The position numbers and the translations under genes were made by a program. A stretch of DNA of 62,930 nt, the filler included, from Folioceros fuciformis (taxonomy: Eukaryota), in assembly GCA_049999805.1 (NCBI GenBank). It is 7 parts of 7 records of this genome, joined end to end, with 100 filler letters (N's around TTAATTAATTAA, not from the genome) between each part and the next. Parts side by side here need not be neighbours in the genome. Positions count along the whole stretch, not along the records: positions 23,393 to 44,248 come from JBNGIO010003578.1; 6 more parts are not named here. One strand, given 5' to 3'. Every line of letters starts with the position of its first letter. Position 1 is the first letter of the stretch. This document shows positions 17,275 through 54,409 of the stretch, piece by piece. Below the pieces are notes generated by a model that ran no database searches, was not told where the DNA came from, and was given only the letters and a program-made list of their open reading frames with translations.

Positions 17275-17721
17275 GGGACCCCGGCGCCCGTAGCAGTGTC
17301 AAAACCCCACCCATCCGCTGCAAACCCCGCCACCATGTCTCTGCAGCTGCGATTGCAACCGGAAAAACGCAATTCTTGATCCAGGAACTGGCACGCCGCG
17401 CCCTGCACCACCACGCAACAACCAGAACCCGCCGCTTCCTCTCATCGGTCGAGCCACCAGCGCATTGCGCCACGAGCCGCAGCAAGAAGGAGACAGAAAG
17501 CGGAGGAGAAGGCCGCGAAGACGGGGAAAAGCTCAGCTTTCAAAATGCTCTAGCGGCAACGGTACTGGCACAGCCCACGACGGGCCGACGGTTTGAAGGG
17601 ACGTCGGTGGGAAGTGGCACGGTCACGGTAACCTCGTCCAGAATCTACATCGTATTAGTGTGTACCAACCATACGGAGATCGACATCACTAAAACAGCTT
17701 GATGTGTGATGTGCATGTACA

Positions 17722-23292: not shown

Positions 23293-23392
23293 NNNNNNNN
23301 NNNNNNNNNNNNNNNNNNNNNNNNNNNNNNNNNNNNTTAATTAATTAANNNNNNNNNNNNNNNNNNNNNNNNNNNNNNNNNNNNNNNNNNNN
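23293..23392. other. Artificial contig linker N-TTAATTAATTAA-N (also at 44249-44348, 49139-49238, 54310-54409, 56318-56417, 60599-60698)
   Basis: An identical 100-nt spacer with a six-frame stop motif occurs six times, and genes are cut at these positions. Confidence 0.97.
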
Positions 23393-24125: not shown

Positions 24126-25262
24126 TGTTGGATATCTTATAAAACAAGTTGTTAAGTACCAACATAGAAATATGTTCGTAGTAGAATCTAATAAAATTTT
24201 GAGAAAATTTATCCTTAGGGAATTGTAATAAGGTTCATAGAAAATTTATTCTTATTGGACTCTAATAAAATTCTTCATCTTTGTATATGCAATAACCTGC
24301 TTTCAAGAATCTTATCATAAGCAAAATGTTATTTTTTTCCGTACAATTATAGGAAGCAAAGTTGATATTACTAAGTCTCCATTTCATTTAAGGAGGGTAT
24401 GGAGTCAGTAAAAATATTTATTATAAAATTATCTGAACTAAAAAAAATTCTAATTTTTTCTATTGATATATTATTTTTATATTATAAATGATATAATTAA
24501 TTTTATTCATGATGAATCAATCAATCAATTTGATCTATGGTGGCCACGAGCTTGTGCTCCAATATTGATTCTTAGATTATTAATGTAAATATATTTATTG
24601 TAAAATTACTTGTGCTAAAAAACTTCTCTATAATAAAAAAACAAACCAACGCCTTAACTAACCTTGCAGGCAAAACTCCAAACCGGGGCCTGGATGGATA
24701 CAGGTTGCACTGAAGGATCTGTTAGCGAGCGGGTCCGTTTTGAATTGCAGAATGTGTATGGAGCCAAGAGCCGCAAGACATCGTGTACAGCTTTGTACTG
24801 AGGTCTGCCACACAGAGCCTGCCATCTTGCTTTTGCGGAAATTTTTATTCGGACTTGATCTCGACATCTTGGAGCTGGGAGGTCCTGCGTATTGGTTGCA
24901 TCTGATTAGCAGCTTCACCGCTTCTTGCAGCAATTTGTCCAACTGTACCATTTTTTGTGCTCAGCCGGAGACGAGTCTGTCTGTTGGAAGGGCAGAATGA
25001 GGCCTCACATACTGTGCTTTGCATGCGGTAGTGCCGACAATTGCACGGTCCTCCTTTCACACAGCAGCACAAGCAGTCATGGTTGCGCTGTGCTTCTTCG
25101 TATTTTCTGTATCATGGAATCATGGATATGCAATGCGAAGGTCATAGACTGCTACAGCATGCAACAGGGTGGTGGTCGGAGTCGTGAAATTTGCTACCTA
25201 GTGGTCATGGATGGGCTGGTGGATCTTGCACAGCCGTTGTGACAGTGCCTGCTGCTCCTGCA

Positions 25263-28200
25263 ATGGCTGTCATGAGCGGTACAGTGGCTTTGACGCTTGA
25301 AACAAAGCCGGGCCTACCAGGAGGATGGTCGTCTAGTGGGGGTCGTCGGCACAGGCACTTGCAGGAGGTGTTCTGGTTGGAAAAATTCCGCAGGCCAGGT
25401 TGGGGTGAATTTCAGGTCGCTGGTTTGGATAGAGACATGAGTCATGATCGTGACTTTCTCAGGTGTGCTGGTTTTGAGAAGGGTGTTGCGGCTGAAACTG
25501 TGAAGGAGCTGTGTCATGACGGACAGCTCAGGGAGGCTGTTGAGGGTTTGGGGGTCTTGGTGAGGACGGAGGGCTTTGTTTCTAGAGCTCTGTTTTATGC
25601 TGTTTTGAAGACTTGCTTGATGAAGAAGGATCTTGTTCTGGGGAGGCGGGTACATGCCTTCACTGTGAGGCTAGGGTACCAGTCAGACACGTTCCTGGGC
25701 AACCACATCGTGCGAATGTATGCCGTCCATGGCAGGTTGCAAGAGGTGATGGATGTGTTTGAAAGGGTTGCCAAACCTGATGCATTCACGTGGTCTGCCA
25801 TAATATCTGCGCACGTTAAACATGGAGCTGAGAAGCAGGCCATGGAGTTGTACCGTCGGATGCGGAGGTCTAGTGCCAAGCCAGACGGGCATGTGATAGT
25901 GGCAGCTCTACAGGCTTGTGCAAAGGGATTAGACTTGGAATCTGGGCAACAGGTGCATGCGGATGTGTCGGTCTTCGGGGTTGAGAGTGACTTATTTGTC
26001 TGTAATGGCTTGGTGAATATGTATGCAAAGTGTGGGAGCTTGAAAGATGCCCAGAGACTGTTCGACGGGCTTGTTCAGAAAGATGTTGTTACATGGACCG
26101 CCCTAATTGCAGGGTATTCACAGCAGGGCATGGGGCAGGAAGCCCTTCGTCTGTATAGTGTGATGCAAGAAGAAGGCATGGCGGTACCCAATTCCGTGAC
26201 ATTTGTGTGTCTGTTGCAGGCATGTGCAAGTGTAGGCAATCCAGCTTTGGCGATGGGGAAGCAACTTCATGCACAGGTTAGACAACAAGGGCATGAAACC
26301 AACGTGTTTGTGGCCAGTAGTTTGGTGAACATGTTTGCCAAGTGCGGGAGCCTGGAAGATGCTCAGAGAGTTTTCGACCGACTCAGTCAAAAGGAGGTGG
26401 TGACATGGACTGCTCTGATTGCAGGTTATTCCCAGCAGGGCATGGGATATGAAGCCCTTCGGCTATACGGTGAAATGCAAACGGAAGGCATCACCGTACC
26501 CAATTCTGTTACATTCGTGTCCCTCCTGCAGGCATGTGCGAATGTTGGTACCCCAGCTGCTTTGGAGACAGGAAAGCAGCTCCATACACAAGTCAGACAA
26601 TATGGACATGAGACTGATGTGTTCGTAGCAAGCAGTTTGGTCAACATGTATGCCAAATGTGGTTGCCTGGAAGATGCTCGGAAGGTGTTTGATGCTCTTG
26701 GTCAAAAAGATGATGTGACGTGGACTGCCCTAATTGCAGGGTACTCGCAGCGGGGCATGGGTCAGGAAGCCCTTTCTCTCTACGCTGTTATGCGAGAAAG
26801 TGGCATGGCTGTGCCCAATTCTGTGACGTTTGTGTGCCTCTTGCAGGCATGTGCAAGTCTGGGCGCTCAAGCATTGGAGATGGCGAAGCAGCTTCATGTG
26901 GAGATTAGAGAACGAGGACATGAAGCTGATGTGGTTGTGGGCAACAGTCTGGTGAACATGTACGTAAAGTGTGGCAGCTTACAAGATGCGCAAAGAGTGT
27001 TTGATGGACTTTGTCGACGGGATGTGGTGACATGGAATGTCATGATAGCAGGATATTCCCAGCGGGGCATGGGGCAGGAAGCCCTTCGTCTCTTCCGTGT
27101 CATGCAAGTGGCAGGCAACGCTGTACCTGATTCTGTGACATTTGTATCCTTGCTGCAGGCATGTGCAGATGTGGGTGCCACAGCGTTGGAGACGGGAAAG
27201 GAGCTCCATGTGCAAATTACGGGACATGCACATCAAACTGATGCGTTCATAGCCAACAGTTTGGTGAATATGTATGCCAAGTGCGGCAGCCTGAAAGACG
27301 CCCGGAGATTGTTTGACGGACTAGGTCAAAAGGACGTGGTCACATGGACTGCTCTAATTGCAGGGTATTCCCAGCAGGGCATGGGGCAGGAAGCCCTCGC
27401 TCTTTACAAGGCTATGCAACAAGAAGGCATCGCCATACCCAATTCCATGACATTCTCGTGTCTTCTTCAGGCATGTGCAAGTGTCGGCAACCCAGCTCTG
27501 GCCATGGGCAAGCAGCTTCATGCACAAGTAAGAGAAGGAGGGTATCAATCCAATGTGTTTGTAGCAAGCAGTTTGGTGAATATGTACGCAAAGTGTGGGA
27601 GTGTAGAAGATGCTCAGAGAGTGTTTGACAGACTTGGTGAGAAAGATTTGGTGACCTGGACTGCTCTGATTGCAGGGTATTCCCAACAGGCTATGGGGCT
27701 TGAAGCACTTCGTCTATATAATGATATGCAAGAAGAAGGCATCACTGTTCACAATCCTGTTACATTTGTGTGCCTCCTCCAGGCATGTGCTAGTGTGGGC
27801 ACCCTTGCCTTGGAGAAGGGGAAGCAGCTTCATACGCAGATTATTGAAGCAGGGCATCAAGCTAATATGTTTGTAGCTAGTAGTTTGGTGAATATGTATT
27901 CAAAGTGTGGCAGCTTGGAAGATGCTCAACGAGTATTTGCTGAACTGGGGCAAAAGGATGTGGTGACTTGGAATGCCATGTTAGCTGGATATTCCCAGCA
28001 GGGCATGGCGCAGGAAGCGTTTCATCTTTTCAACGCTATGCTAGAAGACAGCATGGTTGTACCCAATTCTGTGACTTTTGTATGCCTCCTGCAGGCATGT
28101 GCGATTGTGGGCCGCCCGGCCTTGGAGATTGGGAAGCATCTTCATGTGCAAATTGGAGAACTAGAGCATCAAGCTGATGTGTTTGTTGTTGGCAGTTTGG

Positions 28201-30956
28201 TGAACATGTATGCGAAGTGTGGGAGTTTAGAAGATGCTCGAAAAGTGTTTGATGGGCTTGCCCACAAAGATGTGGTGACTTGGAATGCCATCATAGCAGG
28301 GTACTCTCAGCTGGGTATGGGGCAGGATGCCCTTTGCCTTTATGACACTATGCAAGAAGAAAAAATGGCTCAGCCCGATGCTGTAACGTACGTGAGCCTG
28401 CTGCAGGCATGTGCCTGCTTGGGCTCCCTGGCACTAGAGAAGGGGAAGCAGCTTCATGAGCAAATTAGAGAGCGAGGGTATCAAGCTTGTGTGTTTGTAG
28501 CCAGCAGTTTGGTGAACATGTATGCAAAGTGTGGCAGCTTGGAAGATGCCCAGATTGTCTTTGACGGACTGGGTCAAAAGGATGTTGTGACATGGAATGC
28601 GTTGATCGCAGGATACTCCCAGCGGGGGATGGGGAAGGAAGCCCTTTTTCTTTATGATGCTATGCAAGAGGAAGGGATTGCTGCACCTGATGCTGTGACA
28701 TTTGTTTCCCTCCTGCAGGCATGTGCCTGTGTCGGCTCCCAGGCTTTGGAGAAGGGGAAGCAGCTTCATACGCAGATTAGTGATGGAGGACATCAAGCTG
28801 ATGGGTTTGTAGCCAACAGTTTGGTAAATATGTATGCAAAGTGTGGCAGCTTAGTAGATGCTCAAAGAGTGTTTGACGGACTTGGTCAAAAGGATGTGGT
28901 GACATGGAACGCCCTGATAACAGGATATTCCCAACACGGGAAAGGGCAGGAAGCTCTTCATCTTCACACTGTCATGCAAAAACAAGGAATTGCTTTACCT
29001 GATTCAGTGACATTTGTTGCCCTCTTGCAAGCATGTGCAAGTGTGGGCTCCCCAGCGTTGGAGACTGGGAAGCAACTTCATGCGCAAATTGGACAACGAG
29101 GACATCAATCTGATTTGTTTGTAGTCAACAGTTTACTAAATATGTATGCAAAGTGTGACGGCTTTGAAGATGCTCAGAAGGTTTTTGAGGGACTTGGGCG
29201 AAAGGATGTGGTGACGTGGAACACTATCATAGCTGGATATTCCCAGCGGGGCATGTGGGTGGAGGCCTTTTCTGCCTACAGTGATATGCAAGAAGAAGAC
29301 GTCAATGTGCCTGATTCTGTGACGTTTGTATGTCTCCTGGGGGCATGCGCCAGTGTGGGTGGCAGCCAAGCGTTGGAGAAGGGCAGGCAGCTTCATATGC
29401 AGCTTAGAGAACGAGGACATCAAGCCGATGGGTTTGTAGCTAGCAGTTTGGTGAACATGTATGCAAAGTGCGGCAGCTTGGGAGATGCACAGAGAGTGTT
29501 TGACGGACTTGGTGAAAAGGATGTAGTCACATGGAATGCCATGATAGCAGGATATGCGAGGCAGGGTAAGGGCCAGGAAGCCCTTCGCCTCCATGCTGCC
29601 ATGGAACAGGAGGGCATCACCGTACTGGATTCTGTGACATTTGTGTGCCTTCTGCAGGCATGTGCGAGTATGGGCACCCTGGCCCTAGAGAAGGGAAAAC
29701 AGCTTCATGCTCAAATTAGAGAACAAGGACAACAAGCTGAAGTGCTTTTAGCGAACAGTTTGGTGAACATGTATGCAAAGTGTGGCAGCTTGGAAGATGC
29801 TCAGAGTCTGTTTGACGGACTTGGCCAAAAAGATGTTGTGACGTGGAATGCCATGATAGCAGGATATTCCCAGCAGGGCATGGGGCAGGAAGCCCTTCGC
29901 CTCTACATTGCTATGGATGAAGAGGGCATCTCTGTGCCTGATTCCGTGACATATGTCTGCCTCCTGCAGGCATGTGCAAATGTGGCAGCACTGCATCTGG
30001 GCCGGCATCTACATGCGCAGATTCAAGAACAAGGGCTTGAAGCTGATTTATTTGTAGCTGGAAGCTTGATAAACATGTACGGAAAGTCTGGAAGTATGCT
30101 TGATGCAGAGCTGGTCTTCAATGCATTGCCTGAAAAAGACGTTGTCACCTGGAATGCTCTGATTGCTGGCTACACCTCTCAAGGAGACAGTGAAGTCGTC
30201 TTCAATCTTGTCCAGAGAATGGAACAGGAGGGTCTACAGCCCGTTGGCATCACGTTCTTAAGTGTATTAACAGTATGCAGTCATGCGGGTCTCGTAAGCA
30301 AGGGGCGAGAATATTTTGAGTCCATGAGCAGAGACTATGGAATCACTCCAACTGTGCTGCACCTCACGTGCATGGTGGATCTCCTGGGCCGTGCAGGGCT
30401 ACTCGACGAGGCACTTGCTTTGGTAAGGTCATTGCCTGTAGTGCCGGATGCCGCAGTGTGGCTCACTCTATTGGGTGCTTGTCAGAAGTGGGGCAACGTG
30501 GAGGTCGCAAATCATGCTTTCAACCAAGCAGTGAAGCTGGACAAGAAAGATGCCTCAGCATATGTCCTTATGTCTAACATATACACTGGTGCCCACATGT
30601 GGGAGCAGGCACATGTTATGCAGGCGAGTAGAGTAAGCAGCAAGGCATGGAAAGATCCTGGCCAGAGCTGGTGGACAGACGATGACGGAATGGTGCACAG
30701 TTTCCTCACGGGGGCGAAGAATCATACTCGTAGTCCAATTAGTCTGAACCTGCAGGTCTCACAAGGAGAGGCGACATTTGTGGGGACACCACCGCCAAAC
30801 TTATCTGCAAATGGGATGGCTTTTCAGTTGTGTAGGCGCAGCAAGAAGCTGGCAATCCCCGTTCATACGAACCTCCATAATCAGTGCTACAATTGTTCAG
30901 GTGGTTGTTCATTGTCAACCTGCCAAGCCACCGAGAACGGTGTCGGCATCAGGTAA
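25263..30956 (+). CDS. Giant intronless PLS-class PPR protein (~1,897 aa, ~15 P-L-S triplets) with E1/E2, WW-type PG box and vestigial DYW tail
   Basis: Repeats of 'DVVTW[TN]ALIAGYSQQG', 'VTFVCLLQACA', 'VFVASSLVNMYAKCGSLEDA'. Terminal 'CSHAGLV', 'CMVDLLGRAG', 'VWLTLLGAC', 'AYVLMSNIY', 'PGQSWWTD..G.VHSF'. First ATG at 25263. Confidence 0.95.
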   Translation: MAVMSGTVALTLETKPGLPGGWSSSGGRRHRHLQEVFWLEKFRRPGWGEFQVAGLDRDMSHDRDFLRCAGFEKGVAAETVKELCHDGQLREAVEGLGVLVRTEGFVSRALFYAVLKTCLMKKDLVLGRRVHAFTVRLGYQSDTFLGNHIVRMYAVHGRLQEVMDVFERVAKPDAFTWSAIISAHVKHGAEKQAMELYRRMRRSSAKPDGHVIVAALQACAKGLDLESGQQVHADVSVFGVESDLFVCNGLVNMYAKCGSLKDAQRLFDGLVQKDVVTWTALIAGYSQQGMGQEALRLYSVMQEEGMAVPNSVTFVCLLQACASVGNPALAMGKQLHAQVRQQGHETNVFVASSLVNMFAKCGSLEDAQRVFDRLSQKEVVTWTALIAGYSQQGMGYEALRLYGEMQTEGITVPNSVTFVSLLQACANVGTPAALETGKQLHTQVRQYGHETDVFVASSLVNMYAKCGCLEDARKVFDALGQKDDVTWTALIAGYSQRGMGQEALSLYAVMRESGMAVPNSVTFVCLLQACASLGAQALEMAKQLHVEIRERGHEADVVVGNSLVNMYVKCGSLQDAQRVFDGLCRRDVVTWNVMIAGYSQRGMGQEALRLFRVMQVAGNAVPDSVTFVSLLQACADVGATALETGKELHVQITGHAHQTDAFIANSLVNMYAKCGSLKDARRLFDGLGQKDVVTWTALIAGYSQQGMGQEALALYKAMQQEGIAIPNSMTFSCLLQACASVGNPALAMGKQLHAQVREGGYQSNVFVASSLVNMYAKCGSVEDAQRVFDRLGEKDLVTWTALIAGYSQQAMGLEALRLYNDMQEEGITVHNPVTFVCLLQACASVGTLALEKGKQLHTQIIEAGHQANMFVASSLVNMYSKCGSLEDAQRVFAELGQKDVVTWNAMLAGYSQQGMAQEAFHLFNAMLEDSMVVPNSVTFVCLLQACAIVGRPALEIGKHLHVQIGELEHQADVFVVGSLVNMYAKCGSLEDARKVFDGLAHKDVVTWNAIIAGYSQLGMGQDALCLYDTMQEEKMAQPDAVTYVSLLQACACLGSLALEKGKQLHEQIRERGYQACVFVASSLVNMYAKCGSLEDAQIVFDGLGQKDVVTWNALIAGYSQRGMGKEALFLYDAMQEEGIAAPDAVTFVSLLQACACVGSQALEKGKQLHTQISDGGHQADGFVANSLVNMYAKCGSLVDAQRVFDGLGQKDVVTWNALITGYSQHGKGQEALHLHTVMQKQGIALPDSVTFVALLQACASVGSPALETGKQLHAQIGQRGHQSDLFVVNSLLNMYAKCDGFEDAQKVFEGLGRKDVVTWNTIIAGYSQRGMWVEAFSAYSDMQEEDVNVPDSVTFVCLLGACASVGGSQALEKGRQLHMQLRERGHQADGFVASSLVNMYAKCGSLGDAQRVFDGLGEKDVVTWNAMIAGYARQGKGQEALRLHAAMEQEGITVLDSVTFVCLLQACASMGTLALEKGKQLHAQIREQGQQAEVLLANSLVNMYAKCGSLEDAQSLFDGLGQKDVVTWNAMIAGYSQQGMGQEALRLYIAMDEEGISVPDSVTYVCLLQACANVAALHLGRHLHAQIQEQGLEADLFVAGSLINMYGKSGSMLDAELVFNALPEKDVVTWNALIAGYTSQGDSEVVFNLVQRMEQEGLQPVGITFLSVLTVCSHAGLVSKGREYFESMSRDYGITPTVLHLTCMVDLLGRAGLLDEALALVRSLPVVPDAAVWLTLLGACQKWGNVEVANHAFNQAVKLDKKDASAYVLMSNIYTGAHMWEQAHVMQASRVSSKAWKDPGQSWWTDDDGMVHSFLTGAKNHTRSPISLNLQVSQGEATFVGTPPPNLSANGMAFQLCRRSKKLAIPVHTNLHNQCYNCSGGCSLSTCQATENGVGIR

Positions 30957-31874
30957 CCGTGCCGTGTGGACGGACACGGGTCGGATGCATGTGTACAAGG
31001 ATGACTAGATCCGCATGACTACTCGCCAGACTTCGGCAAAGCCCTTGTTTCTTAACAACTTTGCCCCCAAACCTTGAAGAAAAGGGCCACAGAAAATGGC
31101 TTTGAGCCTCCAAGTGAAGGGGAAAAATGGCACCCGAGAGTCCCAGTTTTAGTTTTTGAGAAAAATGGCTTTTAGATTTTTTTCGGCTTTCTACTCCATG
31201 TGTTAGAGAATATATCGCTTCTGTATATTATCACATAAGTTATATCACATAAGTTCATGTGTATATCATATAAGCTTTTATTTCTAAGTAATAGGGAACA
31301 ACTCTCATAAGATTCAAAGTATTTAGAGTACATATTCATACACGAAAACTTCTCTTGAACCAAAAGGACCTTGGATATAAAAAAAATACTATCTGAAAAC
31401 AATAATTGTACTTGATGGCATAGCAGGACAAAGGTTGTAAGCTTGTAAGTTAATATTCGATGACTTGATGACTTAGCAAGACAAAGGTTGTAAGCTATTT
31501 TCATGTTCCTCTTACTTTAAAATATTCTGAGCTCATGTTTTAGGAATAATTAGTTTACTTTTTTTTTTGAGATATTTTCTTCTTTTTTAAGGTAAAATAT
31601 ATGGAATACTGATACGGTCATGAGTTCTTATACAAATTTTTTTGCTCCTCCGCATATAGTCCCAACTTTTCTGGTTAACAAACCTGTCCGTCATAAGGCA
31701 TCTCGATGGGGACAACGAGTGATACACACAAAACATTATCTGCCACACACATTTAGGGTTTTCAATTTAGGGTTTGGCAGGTTGCTTCAGGGTTGGGGCC
31801 TTATAGGGTTTCACGGCGGCCATGCTTTCATGGCTGCTCGCGCTTGCCACACTTCATGGGTTCTACAGTTTAGT

Positions 31875-32020
31875 GCCTCAACCTCGCGTAGGCTAAATGC
31901 CTCAGCCCCGCGTAGGCTAAATGCCTCAGCCCTGCATAGGCTAAATGCCTCAGCCCCGCGTAGGCTAAATGCCTCAGCCCCGCGTAGGCTAAATGCCTCA
32001 GCCCCGCACGTAGGCTAAAT
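31875..32020. repeat. 24-bp minisatellite (GCCTCAGCCCCGCGTAGGCTAAAT) x6
   Basis: Directly visible tandem copies. Confidence 0.95.
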
Positions 32021-32216
32021 GTTGAGCTAGTGACGCCACAAGGGGTTCAGGGTACTGCAAGGTTCCAAATTGGCAATTGCTCGTCCTATGTGCTATGCCA
32101 AAGGGGGCTGAAATCACCTTTGGTTATTGCACAGCCCATGAGGGCAAGCTAAAGGGTCATAGGGTTTCTTCCCAAAGCACAATGCAGGTTGAGACCACAA
32201 ACAACCGCCCCCACAG

Positions 32217-32364
32217 GGGTGCAGGAAACGGGTGAGGAGGCAATCCTGATCCATGGCTGCCTTGAGGGTGCAGGAAACGGGTGTGGAGGCAATCCTGATC
32301 CATGGCTGCCTTGAGGGTGCAGGAAACGGGTGTGGAGGCAATCCTGATCCATGGCTGCCTTGAG
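32217..32364. repeat. 49-bp tandem repeat x3 (GGGTGCAGGAAACGGGTGTGGAGGCAATCCTGATCCATGGCTGCCTTGA)
   Basis: GCAGGAAACG occurs at 32221, 32270 and 32319. Confidence 0.95.
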
Positions 32365-33129
32365 TAGAAGGTTGTGTTTCGGTAAGCTTGTTGTGGTGTA
32401 CATTGTGAGGTGAGTGTGATGTTGGATGGAAGGGACACATGTTTGTTGTGGGAACTGAGGTTACAGCAGGGCTGATAGCTTGTAATTGTGCAAAGGGCGA
32501 CCACGTCCACAGCTTGCCTGCCTTCACGTGGTCCACAGCTTGCTTGCCTTCATGGCTAGGCCCGATTGTCTAGAGATGTGTGCCAGAAACTTTACAAACT
32601 CTTAAAGACGATTCTTTAAAGATTGTATTCCTTTAGGGTTTAGCGTTCCTTTCAGTCCACAAAGAGGTTGTAGATAATTAAAAAAATTAGCTATACGATA
32701 TATAGGATTGGATGATGTGACAAGTACGGAAGAGAAATATTCATTGGATGCTATAGAATATTCACATATAATATACGTGTTCATAAAAAAAAAACATGAT
32801 TATGTAATCCCTGTCCACATCGGCATTCCATAAAAATAGGTTTAGCCTCTAATTTTATACTAAAAATATCTTTTATACTTTTTTGAAGTATAAAATGTCT
32901 AGAGGAATCCAAAATAAAATAAAATATGACTTTAAGCCCCCAAGTAAAAATTATTTGCCGAGGACTACTCACTCTACGCGCAGAAAGGAATTTATCTGGA
33001 TTTGTCCGAATTTATCTGGATTTGTCCGAATGTTTTGCAATCAGGAAGCATCTGTCAAACGTCCCACTTGCAATTTAGTACGACCGTGCAGTGGGCCGGA
33101 TTCCTCAGTATCGAGTCTACTGCGCATGT

Positions 33130-33470
33130 GAGGTATCCGGCAATTATCTTGTATGGGCCCATGCCCTCAGCCCTCGAGTCACAAGATCGTCCTTCCATTC
33201 CGTTAGAGGGACATGGGTCCCCACACTCTATCCATGTCCAACCACGAACTTTAACTGTGCTTCTCCTTAATTGATTACAGGGCTGGACCCATGAGATTGT
33301 GGGTGAGCTGATTGAACCAAGTCTGGAGTGCTTGACCCAGGCAGGCACAGGCTTCAGCGGGCATGCAGGCAACATCGACGGACGTGGTTGGATACCGTGT
33401 CGTGATGCACCGGCTGACCGCATGAACAGAGTTCTGTAACAACTGCTAATCTTGGAAAGGGATGCTAGGG
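33130..33470 (-). pseudogene. Frameshifted PLS-PPR relic
   Basis: 'HGIQP', 'ACACLGQALQT', 'ECG', 'IIAGY' in shifting frames and in P-L-S-P order. Confidence 0.55.
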
Positions 33471-34249
33471 CACTCTTGCGTGTCGAGGCAGGATTGAGGA
33501 GGAAGGGCGATCCTTCGTGCTGTAGCCGCACGGTGAACAAGACAAAAGCTTCTTCCCTTTTTCACGTTTATTGTGGCGGCGAAGGGAGAGTTTGATACGA
33601 ACCCGCAACGGCAGGCAAAGTGTTTTACAGGCTGTTGAGCCACAGCCACCTCACGTTGCTCTGACGACTGAGATCAGCGCTGAGAGCAATGACAGGTGAT
33701 CCAACCTGTCAGTGTCCCCAACCTGAACACCCCGACGATCATCAAGGGCTTGTGAAAACAGGGAGCTGAAATCATGAGTGAGACATAGTGAAAGGGAAGT
33801 AGTACCTCTTTCGTGTGTGAAGAATCAGGGCCCTGATCCTACCCAGGTGGTGGAGAGATACATCCCAATCCCAGATGGGAGGAAGCCATGCAGCCAAAAC
33901 AGACGAGAAAAAGTTGTCATGAACCAACAATCGGCTGCGGCAAATAGATTCTTTACACTTGACCGCGTGCTGCACATCTGCTACGCTGAGAAAGCTATTA
34001 ACATTGTGGCTATCTCCTGTACAAAGTGTATATGAGGGATGCCATCACAGCCTAGCAAGTATGCTGCTGCAAAGACAAGCCCTCTCTACTGGAAAGCGCT
34101 TAATGTGGCATACATACATGCTGATCTATGCTAACTTGGAGGGGGAAGATTGCGCCACTCACATACACAGGATCTGGCTGGTGCAAGCTCTTTTTCCGAA
34201 CCCTTCTGTACAAAGTAGTCCACCACTGGCTGCTGGTGGGCTGCTGCTG

Positions 34250-34885
34250 TCACCAGTTCTCCCTCATGACTTTAGCCTTCTCCAGAATAAACTTACCCTC
34301 CTTGTACTTCTGCGAATCCTCGTAAGCCTTCTCATACTTCCAGCCCAGAGTCTCCTCGCAATCCATGCAGGAGATGTCAGCCACAGTGTGCAAGCCCGTC
34401 ATGAGGTGCCGGTCTTCCTTCTGCCCCACCTTCACATTCACAACGGTTGCGAAAAGGAAGGCCCTCCCATTCCGTCCCTGTAGCCCACTGCACGCATGTA
34501 AGAAGCAAGGAGCACCATCGTACAAAACAAACACACCCCCACCCCTTAGACTGCTAAATGCATCAACGAGACAGTACAAAACCAACCACACGCCCATGGG
34601 CATGGAATTGGGCAAGCAGGAGACGCAACTAGGCCACTGAATTGCCCAGCGAGCGCACGTACCCCCGCAGGAACCCACCATACAAATCAGCTCAGCAAGA
34701 AAAAAGGGGGTAGAATTCCATCGCAAGCCAGGCAAGAAAGCAGGCAGCAACAATTACGCAGCACAAGGGCAGGTGCCCACATGGAAAGCCTTGGAGATGC
34801 AGTCATCGTGGTCGGCGATGTGGCAGCGGCAGTTGCAGCAGCTGTAGATGCGAGGACCAGGCAGGAATTCTCGGCGCCCGTCCAT
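34250..34885 (-). CDS. Yippee-like zinc-binding protein; 2 exons, intron 34478-34780
   Basis: '[38 protein letters not shown]...[47 protein letters not shown]'. Confidence 0.93.
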
Positions 34886-35310
34886 CCGCCTGAGCCTGTT
34901 GGGCAAGGAATACAGCCGGGACAGGGATCCGGGGGAATTCCACACACAGCCGGGCAGAATCACGGCACCAAGCTTCGCAATGGTTCTCTGCGCCACGTAC
35001 TAAGCGCTGTGCCGGGGAATTGAAGGCAGAGCTACCGCCGCGGCAGGCTTTAAGGAAGGAGAGCCGCCATAGCCGAGGAAGAGGAGCAGACAGGGCTGTG
35101 CAGGGGAAACGCCGAGAGAGAGCCGAGACACTGGCCGACAGAGTCTTCCCTCGCTTTTATCTTGCGTCCTCCTGTAGCACAGCCCACATCACTCTTCCAA
35201 ATCTTCCATTTCTGAGAAATTCGCATTTGCATCCTCCTTGCCTCGCGCCTTGGCCTCGTCCCCTGCCCGCTTTTGAGGCGGCAGACCCTCTTCGGCATAT
35301 ATTCTGGAAG

Positions 35311-38028
35311 TTATGATGTTCTCTGCTTTGGGCGGTAACAGCCATCGTCCACTTCTGTAAACACGGGCGGCTTGTATTTCAGCCTTGATCTATTATTAAG
35401 GGGGGTCGGATAATCCTGATCTCCGACCACAAAGCTGTGCACCAGACCATGGATGTCGGTCCACCAGCTCTCACCTGGCTGCTTCCTCGCCCTCATTCTA
35501 TTTCGCCGGGCCTGGATCTCCTGGGCCTGCTCACCCATCTGGGCACCCATGTAGATGTTGGACATCAACACATAGGCAGCGGCATCTTTCTCATCCAGCT
35601 TCACAGCTTCAAAGAAGGCAGGACGTGCCACTTCCACGTTGCACCACTTTTGGCAAGCAGCCAGCAGGGTGTGCCAGACGGCAGCGTTAGCTTGTACTGG
35701 CATTGACCTGACCATAACCAGCGCCTCATCTAGGTGGCCAGCACGGCCCAGAAGATCCACCATGCAGGTGTAATGCTCAACCGCCGGGGTGATTGTGTAG
35801 TGTGAGCTCATGGCTTGGAAGTACTCTCTGCCCTTGTCCACCAGACCTGCATGACTGCACACTGTTAGTACGCTGAGTAGAGTGATTCCGACTGGCCGTA
35901 TGCCATCCCCTGACATTCTCTGCACCAAGTGGAAGACTGCTGCACTGTCTGCCTGGCAAGCGTAGCCTGCAATCAACGTGTTCCAGGCACCGTCGTCTCT
36001 TTCGGGCAAGCCATCGAACACCTGCTGTGCATCAAGCATGCTCCCAGACTTTGCGTACATGCTTATCAAGCTGCTAGCTACGATGACGTCGGCTTGGAGA
36101 CCTTGTTCTACAACATGGGCATGAAGCTGCCTTCCTATCTGCAGAGCTGCCACATTTGCACATGCCTGCAGGAGGCACACAAACGTGACGGAGTCAGGTA
36201 CTGCGATGCCCTCTTGTTGCATAGCATTGTAGAGAAGGAGGGCTTCCTGCCCCATGCCCTGCTGGGAGTACCCAGCTATCATGGCAGTCCATGTCACGAC
36301 GTTCTTTGCATGAAATCTCTGAAATACTGTCTGAGCATCTTCCAAGCTCCCACACTTTGCATACATGTGTACCAGACTGTTGGCTACGAACACGTCAGAT
36401 GCATGTCCTTGGTCTCTTGATTGTGCATGAAGCTGCTTCCCCTTGTCCAAGGCTCGGCTGCCTACACTTGCACATGCCTGAAAAAGACATCCAAATGTTA
36501 TGGAATTGGGCACAACAATGCCTCCTTCTTGCATTGCATTGTACAGGTCGAGGGCTTCCTGGCCCATTCCCTGCTGGGAGTATCCTGCGATTAAAGCAGT
36601 CCATGTCACGACGTCTTTGTGCCCAAGTCCATCAAACACTCTCCGCGCATCCTCTAGGCTGCCACACTTGGCATACATGTTAATCAAACTGCTGGCTACA
36701 AACACATCAGGTGGGTGTCCTTGTTCTGTGATTTGGGCATGAAGCTGCTTCCCTGTCTCCAAAGATGCGGTTCCCACGCTTGCGCAAGCCTGCAGGAGGC
36801 ACACAAATGTGACAGAATTGGGTACCGACATGCCTTCTTCTTGCATTGCCCTGTAGAGATGAAGAGCTTCCTGCCCATCGCCCTGTTGAGAATACCCGGC
36901 AATTAGAGCAGTCCATGTCACCACGTCTTTTTGCCCAAGTCCATCAAACACTCTTTGTGCATCCTCTAGGCTACCACACTTTGCATACATGTTAACCAGA
37001 TTGTTGGCTACTAATAAATCAGCTTCATATCCTCGTTCTGTCATTTGTACATGAAGCTCCCTCCCCTTCCCCAGAGCTGGGGACCCCATGCTTGCACATG
37101 CCTGCAGGAGGCACACAAATGTCACAATATCGGGCATAGCCATGCCATCTTCTTGCATAGCGTTGTGCAGACGGAGCGCTTCTTGCCCCATATCCTGCTG
37201 GGAATACCCTGCTATCAAGGCATTCCATGTCACCACATCTTTTTGAACAAGTCCATCGAACACAACCTGAGCATCCTTTACGCTGCCACACTTTGCGTAC
37301 ATGTCTACAAGGCAATTGCAGACAAACAAATCAGGCTGAACCCCACTGGCCAACACATCTGCATGCACCTGTTTCCCAGCTTTCAAGTCTGATCCCCTTG
37401 CACAAGCCTGAAGGGCAGCCACAAACACATGGCCATCTGGCTTCACATTTGACCTGCGCATCCGACCATACAGTTGTTTTGCCTGTATGTCTTGACCGTG
37501 TTTAACAAGTGCAGAAATCATTGACGACCACATGAAAGCATCTGGGTTGGCCATCTCGGTGAACACATCCATCGCGTCTTCCAACCTTCCATGAGAAGCA
37601 TACATTCGCAAAATGTGATTGCAAAGGAACGTGTCTTCCTGATACCCTTCCTTCAACGTGAGAGCATGGACGCGCCGACCCAAAATGAGATCCTTCCTCT
37701 TTACACATTTGTTCAAGACCGTGTACAACAGAGAAATAGAGATGCAACATGCTGTCTGCACAAGAATTCCCAGAGCCTCAACAGCCTCAGCAAGATGGCC
37801 CTCATGACATAGGTTAATCACGGTTTCAGCCGTTACGCCCCACTTGACTCCTACAGGTAGGTGGACGTTAGGATCATGATGCCTGCCGCAGGTGGATCCT
37901 GTTGAACGAGGTGGCTTTTCCTTGAAAATGCTGCAACTCGAGAGTCGAAGGTTTGCAAACGGTTGCTTCCCTGAAGTCGGCTGCGCACGAGCTGTCCCTA
38001 AAATCCATGCAAACCTCCTACGACCCAT
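35311..38028 (-). CDS. Intronless PLS-class PPR protein (~6 triplets) with E1/E2 and WW-type PG box, ending before the DYW active site; paralog of 25263-30956
   Basis: Same repeat consensus and N-cap ('GVTAETVINLCHEGHLAEAVEALG') as the giant PPR. 'KQPGESWWTDIHGLVHSFVVGD' is followed shortly by a stop. Start placed at ATG 38028 because the upstream ORF part overlaps the monooxygenase last exon; the start is uncertain. Confidence 0.92.
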   Translation of the reverse strand: MGRRRFAWILGTARAQPTSGKQPFANLRLSSCSIFKEKPPRSTGSTCGRHHDPNVHLPVGVKWGVTAETVINLCHEGHLAEAVEALGILVQTACCISISLLYTVLNKCVKRKDLILGRRVHALTLKEGYQEDTFLCNHILRMYASHGRLEDAMDVFTEMANPDAFMWSSMISALVKHGQDIQAKQLYGRMRRSNVKPDGHVFVAALQACARGSDLKAGKQVHADVLASGVQPDLFVCNCLVDMYAKCGSVKDAQVVFDGLVQKDVVTWNALIAGYSQQDMGQEALRLHNAMQEDGMAMPDIVTFVCLLQACASMGSPALGKGRELHVQMTERGYEADLLVANNLVNMYAKCGSLEDAQRVFDGLGQKDVVTWTALIAGYSQQGDGQEALHLYRAMQEEGMSVPNSVTFVCLLQACASVGTASLETGKQLHAQITEQGHPPDVFVASSLINMYAKCGSLEDARRVFDGLGHKDVVTWTALIAGYSQQGMGQEALDLYNAMQEGGIVVPNSITFGCLFQACASVGSRALDKGKQLHAQSRDQGHASDVFVANSLVHMYAKCGSLEDAQTVFQRFHAKNVVTWTAMIAGYSQQGMGQEALLLYNAMQQEGIAVPDSVTFVCLLQACANVAALQIGRQLHAHVVEQGLQADVIVASSLISMYAKSGSMLDAQQVFDGLPERDDGAWNTLIAGYACQADSAAVFHLVQRMSGDGIRPVGITLLSVLTVCSHAGLVDKGREYFQAMSSHYTITPAVEHYTCMVDLLGRAGHLDEALVMVRSMPVQANAAVWHTLLAACQKWCNVEVARPAFFEAVKLDEKDAAAYVLMSNIYMGAQMGEQAQEIQARRNRMRARKQPGESWWTDIHGLVHSFVVGDQDYPTPLNNRSRLKYKPPVFTEVDDGCYRPKQRTS

Positions 38029-38192
38029 TGATGGCACGACTACCCTCGTATTGCAAGTCCTTACAATGTTGGGGAGAGGAGAAATTTTGGTGATGGGATG
38101 GTTGGAACGTGGTGGCACACATTTCAAAATGCAGGCAGTATGTTTGCTTTCAGTGTACAAATCTGGAGCTCTGAGAATTCCTCGTTTACACG

Positions 38193-40268
38193 TCAGCCTC
38201 TTGCGCTTCTGGAGCTGGTTAACTCCACTAGTGACAACCAGGGTCTGTGCCTCTGAACAATCTACATAAGGAGCAGAAATAACTTCAAAAGGCGGCCTGA
38301 CTGACATGAAGGCCTCTTCACACCTTAGTCCAGGAGAACATTTGCCTTAAGAACCACAGCGAGCATCATTTGCTACGTACCTCTGAGTAAGGAGTCAAGG
38401 TCTCTGAGCACAAGCTCTGAATGGTGGGTGGAAGTAGATCTGGAAATGCTTTACCAACAAGCGAGTACAGCACATTCCCTGCCAGGAAGATTGGAAGAAG
38501 CCACTTGGCGGAAGGGAAGGCATTCTCAGACAAGTACGCAGCCGCACCGTCTTCTTTAACCTGCTGTAAGGAGTAGCGCTCCAAGGCAACATTCATGTAT
38601 TCTTCCGTGCGTAACAGATCAGCAAGGACAACTGCGTCCTGAACACAACAGCAGCAGACGTCAGGAACGGATACCTGTAAGATGCAGCAGAGAGCTTTCT
38701 TTCAAGGGGCCAACAAACCTGCAGTGAAGAATTGCAACCTTGACCAAGAGCATTAGACATGGCATGTGCTGCATCCCCTATTAGCACTGCTTTACCCTTG
38801 GGATCGTAGAATTTGCCACAATTTACCTGCAGGAACATTGCCGCATGCATAGTCATTCACAGGGAAGGTGGCAGGAAAGATGTCGAACACTGTCCTGGTA
38901 GGTGTCGAATACCCTCATAGTAGAAGTTGGGCGTTGCTCGATGAAAGCCTCAGCGGATTCCAGAGGGCACGTCAGTGGTGCCATACTTTTCTCAATGAAT
39001 CTTTTCAGCTGTCATCCAAAAAGAGTAAGAACTGTACTCCACCCCTGGACCATGTAGTCCAAGCAAAATCGCTGCAAACATAGCTACCTCTAGGCTTGAC
39101 GTAATTTGCAGCAGGCTAGCTGGTACAGTTTCTGGAGACCATTCAATTAAAACAGATAGTCGACCATTTGGACTTGGGAAGCAAGCGTATCTCAAAGATT
39201 CAGACTTCCTTCCAAGAAACGGATTTGGAAACTGCAGCCAAAATGGTCTCGTGGATGGAGAATCCTCGGACTCCTGCAAGGGCACACGAAAGGAGTGTAC
39301 TGCTGTATCTGAAAGTTCAGCTGGCCTTGGGACATTCAGGACTTTAAACATGTATGGAGGGTTGATCTGCTGATAGTCAAACCCTCTTTGTCGAATAAAC
39401 TCTTCTCTGACAACTGATCTGGCACCATCAGCGCCGACCAGAAGATCGTACAGGACAGGCTTTTTCTGCCCCTCAACCTGCACAGTACGAGTGCTGAAAT
39501 CGGCTCCCAAACACCTTGTTTCGTAGTGCACCTGCAGTTTTGGTCAGAGTCGTAACTCATGAGACACAAGGCTTGCCCCATCCATATAATCGGCATGACT
39601 GCCATGCCGACGTGATGATAAACCACTCCTACCTGAACCTTCTCCTCGCTGTAACGCTGCTGCAGCTGAGCTAAGAGTGCAGCAGACAGAGCTCTCTGAT
39701 TGATGAGAAGCGATGGCTTATCTGGGTTGCGTTTCAGAGGAATGCTGCGTTTTCCTGCATGGAGCACAAACTCTGAGCTCGGCATCCCGGCTGCCTGTAT
39801 CAAGGGCCATAGTCCATCTACGTGCTCTATTGCATTTCGTCCACGGGCACTCAACCCAACAACATATTGCCTTATCTTGTGCCTGACACAACCACCTTCC
39901 CAATCCTGTCATTGTTTAGAAGACAACGAGCAAGGCACAGAACCCATCATCTCACGTTGCCCATCAGTTGCGAGGCTGATCAGACAATCGGACTGTTGTC
40001 TGTCTCTCGAGTTTGTCAGTAAAAGCCGGCCTCAGGAACACAAACAAAAGGATGTCTAGCATGTAAAACAGGGCGTCAATCTTGAAATGAGTCTATTTCA
40101 CAGCAGATGACCAATTCTGTGCCAGGTGACATACGGTGGTAATGGAGTACACGGATTCTGTCTAGCTTCATAGATTCGGATTGGCAGGATTGGAGTTGGT
40201 TGAGCCAGGAGAAGATGTGCCAACAGAAGCCCTGCTGGGCCTGCGCCCACAATCACAACTCCAGCCAT
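38193..40268 (-). CDS. FAD-dependent monooxygenase (kynurenine 3-monooxygenase-like), multi-exon
   Basis: GxGxxG 'VVIVGAGPAGLLLA', 'YDLLVGADGARSVVR', 'LIGDAAHAMSNALGQGCNS'. The inferred last exon 38193-38261 (E|IVQRHRPWL...G*) follows a polypyrimidine-AG acceptor. Confidence 0.85.
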
Positions 40269-41512: not shown

Positions 41513-41926
41513 TCACCGGTCAAAGGTGCCTTCCTCCCAAGGCACATTTCTTCCTTGAATAGGTGATACAATTCTGAAGTTGTTCCTCGTAAGAAGATTC
41601 AACACCACCGGCTTACTGCTAGCCACGGTCGGCCAGCCATTATCTATCTTCCGGGCGGTCGCTTCTCTCCACTCCTTAGACAGTATCCTAGGAACGGTTC
41701 CTGTCTTAACCAGGTTGGAATCAATCGGACTCACCATACAGCCCGCAGAAAACATGCATCGTGGCTTCAGTTCTATGGAGTCCTTCGTTCCAGCGTATCC
41801 ATGATCACAGGACTGAAAGAGGTGCTCACTGCCAAAAATCTTCCTGTTGCGAACCAAATCCCAGTAGATGTAGGGCACGAAGAAGGCTCCCGTGACGGAG
41901 CCCACAATCAGCCTGGTTTGACCCAT
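41513..41926 (-). CDS. DUF1138 / ozone-responsive OZI1-like small protein; probable in-frame intron 41701-41829
   Basis: 'LIVGSVTGAFFVPYIYWDLVRNRKIFG|TVPRILSKEWREAT...WP......PVVLNLLTRNNF' matches the DUF1138 pattern (KIFG.T.P....EW...T....WP....PVV.NP..RQNF). Divergent copy. Confidence 0.7.
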   Translation of the reverse strand: MGQTRLIVGSVTGAFFVPYIYWDLVRNRKIFGSEHLFQSCDHGYAGTKDSIELKPRCMFSAGCMVSPIDSNLVKTGTVPRILSKEWREATARKIDNGWPTVASSKPVVLNLLTRNNFRIVSPIQGRNVPWEEGTFDR

Positions 41927-42019
41927 GAACGCTGCCTTGTCGCTTCTCGTTTGTCGATTGCAAGGCTCAGCACAGAGTTGGCTCACATATAGGAGTCCAC
42001 TGTGACTGAGCTCAACAGG

Positions 42020-42370
42020 GTACGTCCCGGATGTTTGATGCAGTCTGGCAGTGGTCTGAACATACCAAATCCGTATTGGCTACGGGCAGACAGAGGAAAG
42101 TGCTCCTTGGACCGATCTTACAGCTCGCTTTAGCAACGTCTGCAACTGGCTGCGACAACAACTTCTGGTCGGCAAGTGTTTTATGGGTGCATCCAGGTCC
42201 TCCTCTACCGCGACTGTCGGGTTTCTCTTCGCCAGCAGCTGGACACGGATGCCTATGGCACTTGACATGGAACCCGCGTGGAAAAGCAGCTACCCAGAGA
42301 GCTTCGGCAGAACAGCTCGGACGGATAGGACAGGGTTCTGAGCTTTCCATGTCCTACGGGATCTTCTATC
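42020..42370 (+). pseudogene. Possible older PPR relic
   Basis: 'RMFD', 'GCDNN..VG.C', 'LTWN' in PPR-like order; weak. Confidence 0.28.
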
Positions 42371-44248: not shown

Positions 44249-45344
44249 NNNNNNNNNNNNNNNNNNNNNNNNNNNNNNNNNNNNNNNNNNNNTTAATTAA
44301 TTAANNNNNNNNNNNNNNNNNNNNNNNNNNNNNNNNNNNNNNNNNNNNCAGACTCCTACGCCAAAGTCGCGATCCAACCGCTCTCGGGCCCCCAGCATTC
44401 ACAGCCTCCTCCCAGCCAGCCAAACCAAAATTCGCACTCCAGGATTCAGCGACAGCAGGAATGGCTACACCAAACTCCACATGCATCAAAGCAGCAGATC
44501 CGGTGGTACTACGACGTTCACACTACAGGACGGTAATCCGATGTCACAGAACGACAGCAACACCACAGCCTGCATCGCAACTCTTGGGCGGCCCCAGAAT
44601 TGTGCCGAATTGTGCCGCCACGCTCAGATGCCTCACACGATTGCAATTCTCGGAACGCCCAGCGAAGAGCGAACCAGAGAGACGGAATTCAGGACAGCAA
44701 GAAGCAACCGACGCGGGCAGGAGACCCCGCGAGCCAGAGCGCGCGACAAGCCTGTTGAACAACACAACCACCGGGCCGAGCAAAGCCGAGCGCTCGAGAA
44801 CGGGAAAGGAAAGACAAAAAGGCAGAGGAGAAGGCAAGCGAGCAAGGGTGGCTGAAGGAGGCAGGGAAAAAAACGCGCACAAACTCGAATAATAGTGACC
44901 TGCCTGCCCTCGTTCCCGTTCCCACAGACATATATAGACACGCCAGTCTTCACTCGAGAACAGTTTCTCGAGTTTACCTTCCGAAATCACGGCCCCGGCC
45001 CCGGGGCACGGCTGGTCCCGTGGGCGACCCGTCACCGCCGATCGAAAGGATCTCAGGGCGCATCGTGGAGGCCACGGTCGTGACTCGTGCCGCGCGCTGG
45101 GAGCATATCAATCGCTCTTCTCTCGAATACGCGCAGTCACACCGAACGGCTCGGGACGTGCCGCAACATTATAACACAGTAAACAAAAGATTTTAGAGCT
45201 TGAAACATGATTTTCCAAAAGAGCGCGTGGCGAGGAGACGGCATGCCGGATGGACGCCGTGCACCTTCGCGGCCTGCTTCTTCTGCGTTTGCCCTAGAGC
45301 TCAGGGGTCTGGGAGGACGCTCATTGGTGGAGCGAGGCGCGCGG

Positions 45345-49107: not shown

Positions 49108-49757
49108 CCCCCCATGAGCATATGATGCTACTTCTTTCNNNNNNNNNNNNNNNNNNNNNNNNNNNNNNNNNNNNNNNNNNNNTTAATTAATTAANNNNNN
49201 NNNNNNNNNNNNNNNNNNNNNNNNNNNNNNNNNNNNNNAAGCCAACCTCTTCCCGAGGTACCAGTTAACTTCCTCCTTTGTGTTCACTCCCTCGATTTGC
49301 AGCAGGGAGGTGCTAGGGTACTGATTGGACTTGGACCTTCAAGATGCCGTTCACTATTACATTAAGCCCTACAAGTGCGCAGCCCTCCCAACTCCCCTCC
49401 CAGGAGGTGCAAACCGTAGGTCAAGCAAAAGACGCTGGCAACGATGAGCTTACCTCTTGTAGCCCAAAACAATCCCTCGGACGTACAACCTGCGCGTTAC
49501 AGCACGCCAACACAGGGAACCTGAAAGTCAGCAAAACATACACCAGCCACAGTCCGGAAGAATTCGGGCTCGATACACAAGTCAGTCCAGGACTCCTACA
49601 ACAGAGGAGATCAGCGAGACGGAAAAGCCGACGTACCTCACGTTCTCGCCTTTGGTTCCTGGCATCCTGAGCGACGATGAACGATCTGGGCGCTGGCGGC
49701 CGGAGCAGTGAGAACACGAAAGAGAGCTTCAGGTTTCAATCCGAGCACTATATGTAA

Positions 49758-54309: not shown

Positions 54310-54409
54310 NNNNNNNNNNNNNNNNNNNNNNNNNNNNNNNNNNNNNNNNNNNNTTAATTAATTAANNNNNNNNNNNNNNNNNNNNNNNNNNNNNNNNNNN
54401 NNNNNNNNN

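Follow-up and report, generated by a model that had tools for sequence, protein, structure and literature searches.

Can a plant RNA-binding protein built of tandem repeats still lengthen and re-target itself by exchanging whole repeat modules, or does its array record an exchange that ended long ago? The question is raised by two pentatricopeptide repeat (PPR) genes of the PLS class in the non-seed plant Folioceros fuciformis (NCBI GenBank assembly GCA_049999805.1), which share N- and C-terminal caps and differ in the number of P-L-S modules between them. They lie in the part that comes from record JBNGIO010003578.1 (positions 23,393 to 44,248) of the window, the whole stretch of 62,930 nucleotides (nt), filler included, in which seven parts of seven records were joined; all coordinates count along this window. 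A first-pass annotation had read the pair as accordion-like paralogues whose RNA specificity is rewritten by unequal crossover or gene conversion among homogeneous modules, analogous to TALE or PRDM9 arrays. We find an older history: genes A and B are very probably old paralogous nuclear genes carrying the product of an ancient in-register burst of triplets, which has since diverged under purifying selection. The locus reveals no new mechanism. Its kind is an ordinary one, and length alone sets it apart (48 PPR motifs in gene A).

The two genes are long open reading frames (ORFs) in convergent orientation. Gene A (25263-30956, plus strand) is an intronless ORF of 1897 amino acids (aa) with 48 PPR motifs followed by E1 and E2; gene B (35311-38307, minus strand) encodes 998 aa at its longest, with 21 PPR motifs followed by E1 and E2. 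Both are PLS-class PPR proteins of the E type, without a DYW domain. The interval given at first, 25263-38028, does hold two long PPR ORFs, but that of gene B extends to 38307; position 38028 is an internal methionine (MGRRRF...), a plausible true start that would yield a protein of 905 aa. The caps are common to both genes, as had been annotated. The N-cap follows the pattern GV.AETV..LCH.G.L.EAVE.LG.LV in A (25482-25781; a PPR-like motif plus L and S, GVAAETV...AKPD) and in its positional counterpart in B (37540-37839; GVTAETV...ANPD), and their alignment gives a nonsynonymous divergence (dN) of 0.26 and a synonymous divergence (dS) of 1.08. The C-cap (30141-30725 in A, 35410-35994 in B) runs through P2-L2-S2-E1-E2 into a PG box with the common end PGxSWWTD..VHSF (KDPGQSWWTD...VHSF in A, KQPGESWWTD...VHSF in B). 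Past the PG box the tails of A and B are unrelated: that of gene A (30726-30956, 77 aa) resembles neither B nor a DYW domain, and the ORF of gene B ends 33 codons on, at 35311. Similarity between the genes in blastn is limited to the PPR region (25481-30703 in A against 37840-35432 in B, ~74% nt identity), and the flanks are without similarity.

Gene A has 14 triplets between its caps and gene B has 5; their P motifs measure 35/36 aa, their L motifs 35/37/38 aa and their S motifs 31 aa. The first triplets, A00 (25782-26084; 35+35+31) and B00 (37237-37539), are 101 aa long and pair with each other. They are followed by twelve in-register modules of 104/105 aa (312/315 bp) in A (A01-A12, 26085-29834) and three of 104 aa (312 bp) in B (B01-B03, 36301-37236), all of the form P36-L37-S31. 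The last triplets, A13 (29835-30140; 36+35+31, with a distinct L motif, NVAALHLG) and its counterpart B04 (35995-36300), measure 102 aa. Motif parsing and Tandem Repeats Finder (TRF) both bear out the annotated 104-aa module of 36 (P) + 37 (L) + 31 (S) and its 312-bp period, TRF reporting 12.7 copies at 26010-29985 in A (74% matches, score 3575) and 3.8 copies at 36156-37334 in B (76% matches). Spacings of the P-motif anchor (VVTW[NT]) likewise run 101, 104, 105, 104 (eight times), 105, 104 and 102 aa in A, and 101, 104, 104, 104 and 102 aa in B. The earlier count of 13 versus 4 modules is correct if the distinct 102-aa last triplet (A13/B04) is included; strictly, 12 central modules in A face 3 in B, and all triplets together number 14 and 5. 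The only simple route to 12 versus 3 modules between orthologous caps is in-register gain or loss of 312-bp P-L-S units, and to that extent the proposed unequal crossover stands, as history. As an active process it does not: neither conversion tracts nor clustering of modules by gene was found.

The modules are strongly diverged. Among the 15 central modules, identity averages 68.1% in amino acids (57.7-82.7), 74.5% in nucleotides (68.9-80.8) and 60.1% at third codon positions, values that "homogeneous" overstates. Third positions are alike to a similar degree within gene A (60.9%), between the genes (58.7%) and between caps (58.4-66.7%). By the NG86 method, mean synonymous divergence is 1.01 over the 66 pairs of A modules (range 0.57-1.95), 0.98 over the 3 pairs of B modules and 1.09 over the 36 A-B pairs, against 1.08 (N-cap), 1.12 (A00-B00), 0.63 (A13-B04) and 1.91 (C-cap) for positional cap pairs. 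As module dS is similar to cap-pair dS, silent sites put the age of the modules level with the A/B gene split. The end triplets kept their positional identity, A00 being 76% identical to B00 at the nucleotide level and only 51-55% identical to A01-A13 and B01-B04, and A13 being 81% identical to B04. The longest exact stretch shared by any two triplets is 45 nt (A08/A12; median 16 nt), a 60-nt window at ≥93% identity occurs in only 3 triplet pairs, and no conversion tracts were detected between modules, exact matches reaching at most 45 nt. Identity is also flat along the array, with a mean of 72.8-75.6% at each lag from 1 to 11, neighbours being no closer than distant modules; this rules out higher-order or block duplication inside A. 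Only the pair A01/A05 stands out in A (81% nt identity; support 94/80 on the protein tree described below).

Selection on the modules is purifying overall, with dN/dS ~0.19 in A-A, A-B and B-B comparisons alike. The fifth and last residues of the motifs, which carry specificity in PPR proteins, had been described as toggling on a conserved scaffold. They do toggle: in the 15 central modules, P5 is T (8) or N (7), the last residue of P is N (8) or D (7), S5 is S, N or G, and L5 is V in 13 of 15, so that every central P motif is T/N, N/D or N/N. The scaffold around them is not fixed, however. Only 23 of 104 columns are invariant, the six fifth and last positions rank 40, 41, 53, 24, 29 and 60 by entropy, and the most variable columns are P22, P25, L16, L17 and L32. 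Nor is nonsynonymous change (pN per codon) concentrated at these positions: their six codons rank 34, 38, 40, 31, 32 and 63 of 104, and pN rises above the overall pS (0.549) at P22, P25, L16 and L32 but at none of the six. In the 14 triplets of A, 25 of 28 P and S motifs hold canonical code pairs (TN, ND, SD, NN), to which the PPR code table assigns bases; these pairs fit an RNA-binding surface that would have been maintained. Read by this code, the P and S positions of A predict G.U A.? A.G A.U U.U A.G A.G Y.? U.G U.U U.U U.G U.U U.?, followed by P2/L2/S2 with S2 = G, and those of B predict G.U U.U A.G A.Y G.G, followed by S2 = A.

Sequencing reads add evidence on age and expression. The read evidence consists of short-read contigs, ~26,000 pieces of which aligned to the window; only the longest few are listed. 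Runs X1 and X2 are DNA, X3 belongs to a different study (2017) than the best-matching DNA runs, and X4 is from a differently labelled organism. X3 behaves as RNA: one of its contigs skips 33721-33803 and 34477-34779, across both of which DNA contigs are continuous, and the run gives no cover over intergenic 31296-32687. Its pieces match gene A with 0 differences at 25083-25490, 26510-26847, 28892-29466 and 30476-31126, and gene B, again with 0 differences, at 34780-36041 and 37708-38261; genes A and B are thus both transcribed, X3 pieces covering parts of each. X4 pieces align to gene A at 28230-28519 (18 differences, 3 gaps), 29190-29456 (12 differences, 3 gaps), 30066-30196 (7 differences) and 25772-25913 (10 differences), and to gene B at 35857-36175 (15 differences). 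These contigs are 93-95% identical to the window across the N-cap/A00, A07/A08, A10/A11, A13/P2 and B04/C-cap boundaries. Because pairs of modules within the window reach at most 80.8% identity, the X4 pieces are most simply orthologous modules, and at least those junctions would then predate the split from the X4 organism, across which the array would have been stable. A joint in X4 (26177>29310) was considered as a shorter allele and rejected, since the 3132 nt it skips are no multiple of 312 and its anchoring is short (side of 30, 9 foreign letters). Summed contig depth lies in the hundreds to thousands in bins of the arrays, against ~10-13 in the flanks in run X1; this is a sign of numerous PPR relatives in the genome, and the figure does not measure copy number. 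Paralogue contigs align to the arrays by the thousand at ≥90% likeness, and most of the listed joints, with sides of 21-41 nt, come from paralogues.

What the two proteins do has to be read from their class. Gene A matches the Pfam families PPR_2 (PF13041, 5.9e-228), PPR (PF01535, 4.6e-189) and E_motif (PF20431, 1.4e-15, aa 1744-1803), and gene B matches PF13041 (8e-96), PF01535 (7.2e-82) and PF20431 (8.6e-09, aa 889-948). Tandem PPR profile matches together with repeating P-L-S triplets and a 31-aa S motif place both in the PLS class, and a C-terminal P2-L2-S2 followed by E1 and E2 places them in the E/E+ subgroup. The closest chains in the Protein Data Bank (PDB), both synthetic PLS proteins, are a PPR-DYW protein (9kfx, E 6.6e-156) and PLS9-PPR (5iww, E 8.2e-76). 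Neither gene has a Pfam match to the DYW deaminase (PF14432) or to E+ (PF20430), the pattern HxE...CxxC does not occur in the six frames of 30400-35600 (regular expression search), and tblastn with 4 DYW-bearing homologues found no deaminase match anywhere in the window. Only the PPR, E and PG-box parts of these homologues matched, and in gene A their matches end at 30857 or earlier. A separate DYW exon 3' of gene B was ruled out, the spliced X3 RNA contig there encoding a Yippee-like protein. Together, the Pfam, pattern and tblastn negatives and the Yippee-like frame 3' of B make A and B E-type (DYW-less) PLS proteins.

Since both lack the deaminase, any C-to-U editing would need a DYW protein in trans. 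By analogy with known E/E+ factors, we think it somewhat more probable than otherwise that A and B act as RNA-recognition subunits of editing and rely on such a trans deaminase. Each P and S motif would read one RNA base through its fifth and last residues, as we infer from the family, and the L motifs, almost uniformly V/D, probably add little base discrimination. A different role for gene A is possible, if on the unlikely side: instead of a site-specific editing factor, it could be a long-footprint RNA stabiliser or chaperone, or a gene drifting to loss of function after loss of its DYW domain. The tract is poor in code, its L motifs being almost all V/D and its P and S motifs specifying mostly A, U or G, and the tails past the PG box, unrelated between A and B, would suit such a role, as would the lack of a DYW domain in both genes. 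Cis-elements of editing factors span ~20-25 nt, which 48 motifs exceed. Roles other than editing have been reported for PLS proteins (PMC4872118). Decay, for its part, sits poorly with a 1897-codon frame that has stayed open despite dS ~1 between modules and dN/dS ~0.19, with the 25 of 28 canonical P and S pairs, with E1, E2 and a PG box conserved in A, B and their relatives, and with the transcription of both genes. These counterpoints do not separate editing from stabilisation.

The module trees bear on where the length difference came from. In a maximum-likelihood DNA tree of the 19 triplets of A and B, the ends pair by position (A00+B00, support 100/100; A13+B04, 99/99), and the central modules form a star in which 13 of 16 inner branches have support <80. 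The gene labels require 5 changes on this tree, no fewer than shuffled labels, and gene of origin therefore does not group the modules. A constraint uniting A01-A12 in a single clade lowers the log-likelihood (lnL) by 20.9 (approximately unbiased (AU) test, p 0.061), and forcing B01-B03 together lowers it by 15.0 (AU p 0.112); intragenic clustering is disfavoured, though the AU test does not formally reject it. Two B-A pairs appear in collinear order, B03-A05 (85/76) and B02-A02 (70/86). Positional orthology of B01-B03 to particular A modules was considered and not adopted at these supports. The first-pass annotation had named position-orthologous modules without intragenic clustering as the outcome that would speak against it. 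The lack of clustering was found; the orthology of B01-B03 by position appears weak.

A protein tree that adds 23 triplets from the seven closest family members gathers all A and B triplets except the first, together with three later triplets of P0003, in one clade (97/91). Nested within it, the 15 central modules form a clade of their own (92/88), from which we conclude that the 104-aa module arose once in the A/B lineage. A group of T/N type (A01, A02, A05, A06, B02, B03; 83/86) stands apart from the other central modules, and two or more types of module were probably present in the common ancestor of A and B. All seven relatives (P0003, P0019, P0025, P0028, P0071, P0091 and P0110) have 3-5 triplets and share the caps and the SWWTD-type PG box, P0003 being 58% identical to gene B. 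Six of the seven are DYW-truncated (P0003, P0091, P0110, P0019, P0028 and P0071), and only P0025 carries a full DYW domain. An alternative we rate as improbable places a long array in the A/B ancestor, from which B and its relatives lost ~9 modules by in-register deletion. It would account for B01-B03 forming no clade and interleaving with A modules, for the two collinear pairs, and for the 20.9 lnL by which the free tree surpasses a single clade of A modules. That clade is not rejected, however, the supports of the B-A pairs fall below the starred level, and with 3-5 triplets in 7 of 7 closest relatives a short ancestor is more parsimonious. Expansion in A is therefore more probable than contraction in B.

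The sequence of events we favour would begin with an ancestor of ~5 triplets, as in gene B and the closest relatives. Around or soon after the duplication that produced A and B, whole 312-bp triplets would have multiplied in register in a tandem burst, via unequal recombination or slippage. The copies would then have diverged by point mutation under purifying selection, with no homogenisation detected, and the array of gene A would now be stable at 48 motifs, without accordion-like activity. Several points weigh against this history. A dS of ~1 is near saturation and rests on ~70 synonymous sites per module, so that it dates coarsely, and the C-cap value of 1.91 shows the noise. The A01-A12 clade is not rejected (AU p 0.061), so that the modules may either predate or postdate the A/B split. 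No short-read contig spans either array, leaving the module number without independent confirmation, and the DNA runs X1 and X2 may come from the very sample behind the assembly of the window. Finally, a footprint of 48 nt exceeds that of the editing cis-elements given above, and standard RNA binding may not extend over the whole tract.

It is very improbable that near-identical modules here still recombine by unequal crossover and gene conversion and so keep rewriting RNA specificity in the manner of TALE or PRDM9. TALE and PRDM9 arrays consist of near-identical DNA repeats with variation at the specificity residues and rapid turnover of copy number. A and B share with them a one-repeat-one-base modular logic and specificity vested in few residues per repeat, and the perfect 312-bp register, the 12 versus 3 copies between orthologous caps and the alternation of P5, P-last and S5 among code-competent residues are what an active array would display. 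The process itself exists in the family, as PLS proteins of other organisms, 87-92% identical, differ by in-register 101-aa indels. In A and B, however, the modules are only 68.9-80.8% identical with dS ~1; there is no clustering by gene, no tract longer than 45 nt and no decay of identity with distance. At dN/dS 0.19, the specificity codons rank only 31-63 of 104 by pN, showing no focus of variation on specificity residues, and the A07/A08 and A10/A11 junctions are kept at 93-95% in the X4 organism. The locus thus lends no support to a hypervariable system of the TALE or PRDM9 kind. An over-expanded or chimeric assembly of PPR paralogues is scarcely credible: although the draft is gapped (19 N runs), the genome holds many similar PPR sequences and no contig spans an array, there is no N within 25263-38307, a single open frame with exact 104/105-aa spacing passes through all junctions, X3 RNA contigs match four parts of A with 0 differences, X4 contigs cross two module junctions at 93-95%, and repeat collapse or expansion is unlikely because each module differs by at least 19% from all others and shares at most 45 nt exactly.

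Among known systems, A and B most resemble the E/E+ PLS editing factors, with which they share P-L-S triplets, P2-L2-S2-E1-E2, the PG box, canonical fifth/last pairs and the absence of a deaminase. Arabidopsis CRR4 and CLB19 are E/E+ factors of this kind that work with the trans DYW proteins DYW1 and DYW2. A and B differ in the triplet, which is 104 aa here (P 36, L 37, S 31) and 101 aa (35/35/31) in the matches from Diphasiastrum, Cryptomeria and Ginkgo. Gene A further differs in coming from a non-seed plant and in its 14 triplets and 48 motifs. Lycophytes and hornworts are reported to have many PLS, E and E+ proteins with truncated C-termini (PMC13386178). Identity to the PPR genes of the window is highest in Diphasiastrum (43-47%). 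A COBRA exon of the window shows 69-74% identity to lycophyte and fern proteins and to others from transcriptomes, and its matches in named seed plants, mostly at 58-69%, overlap this range.

We compared triplets across 166 proteins with ≥3 regular triplets, using a regular expression that found 13 of the triplets of A (the last escaped). Gene A has the most triplets in this set, and its mean triplet identity is 62.9% (13 triplets) against a median of 48.5% for the per-protein means; the corresponding figure for the 15 central modules of A and B is 68.1%. It resembles other long PLS proteins in having tandem in-register triplets that are more alike than those of a typical PLS protein. Cryptomeria japonica P0002 (1593 aa) has 12 triplets found and 13 consecutive P-anchor spacings of 100-101 aa, and P0122 of the same species (1828 aa) has 11 triplets found; Diphasiastrum complanatum P0077 and P0141 and the European Nucleotide Archive (ENA) proteins P0112-P0145 are further long, triplet-amplified examples. 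Several of these keep the DYW domain. Many are more homogeneous than gene A, among them Diphasiastrum complanatum P0077 (mean 83%, maximum 96%) and P0141, P0127 and P0139 (maximum 99%). Gene A is longer, but older and more diverged.

Within the ENA proteins, a set of PLS-DYW proteins 87-92% identical to one another differs by one-triplet (101-aa) in-register indels at different positions: P0112, P0142, P0152, P0159, P0162, P0167 and P0175 measure 1128 aa, P0139, P0143 and P0145 measure 1229 aa, and P0138 measures 1308 aa. Inside these proteins, triplets of a KSG and a KCG type take turns and reach 99% identity. Judged from these sequences, this set of another organism appears to be a truly accordion-like PLS array. 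The process thus seems to go on today in other lineages, and gene A would be an old, frozen product of it. Other members of the family vary in period. Adiantum PLS proteins have 102-aa periods, and in P0056, P0057, P0095, P0098, P0100 and P0111 the triplet period is ~117 aa, not 101-104, which suggests other lineage-specific lengthened motif variants. Two relatives known from Logan contigs, P0041 and P0109, end in ...CSCGVDH and ...CSCGDDL, with HAEK replacing HSEK.

In P-class restorer-of-fertility-like (RFL) genes, unequal crossing-over is documented along with shifts in gene length and in the number of motifs, as are changes at positions 5 and 35 (PMC5075784). The likeness to A and B is that of PPR genes with motif-number change. 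RFL clusters, however, are multi-gene, with P-class 35-aa arrays, high intra-cluster similarity and diversifying selection, whereas A and B are two PLS-class genes at ~74% nucleotide identity under purifying selection, with no excess change at the fifth and last positions, and fall outside that group. In the literature searched, dynamics of this sort were described for P-class RFL genes alone, and a counterpart with whole triplets in PLS genes did not turn up, though earlier work may cover it. The locus is a clean natural example of length change in PLS proteins, 312-bp triplets having been added between fixed caps and then diverged. Gene A stands at the upper end of the compared PLS proteins in length, is transcribed and has no deaminase, which makes it a reasonable choice for two questions: do the longest PPR tracts contact RNA from end to end, and do DYW deaminases act in trans in non-seed plants? 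More speculatively, and with considerable doubt, PLS genes of non-seed plants may gain longer RNA footprints by whole-triplet bursts, gene A being a selected fossil of one and a ~48-nt reader with a trans deaminase.

Directly 3' of gene B and on the same strand lies the Yippee-like zinc-binding gene (33057-34885, minus strand), with introns at ~34477-34779 (303 nt) and 33721-33803 (83 nt) and a Pfam match to PF03226 (7.1e-10) on its second coding exon. One X3 RNA contig (2599 nt, depth 81) extends unbroken from the interior of gene B (36041), across both spliced introns, as far as 33057; hence either the 3' end of B overlaps the 5' region of the Yippee-like gene or transcription reads through. 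The intergenic stretch between gene A and this gene holds tandem repeats at 31874-32021 (24 bp x 6.1) and 32217-32364 (49 bp x 3.0); at 32122-32375, DNA contigs of X1 and X2 carry several base differences and a 1-bp insertion, and X3 gives almost no cover. Runs of 44 N, 12 bases and 44 N occur at 23293-23392, 44249-44348, 49139-49238, 54310-54409, 56318-56417 and 60599-60698, and further N runs comprise six 100-N gaps and two 10-N gaps; none falls in genes A or B, and all 19 N runs of the window lie outside 25263-38307. The sole other PPR-like signal in the window is a weak tblastn match at 52394-52591 on the plus strand (E 3.9e-4, 32% identity, P0089 residues 118-170). The window is otherwise gene-dense, with exon-sized ORF matches at 488-1330, 3926-4594, 9394-10639, 15601-17298, 41513-42079 and 53618-54361, the families matched by exon-sized ORFs being GT61, a CitMHS transporter, COBRA (N- and C-terminal domains), a condensin-II non-SMC subunit (HEAT), DUF1138 and class III peroxidase.

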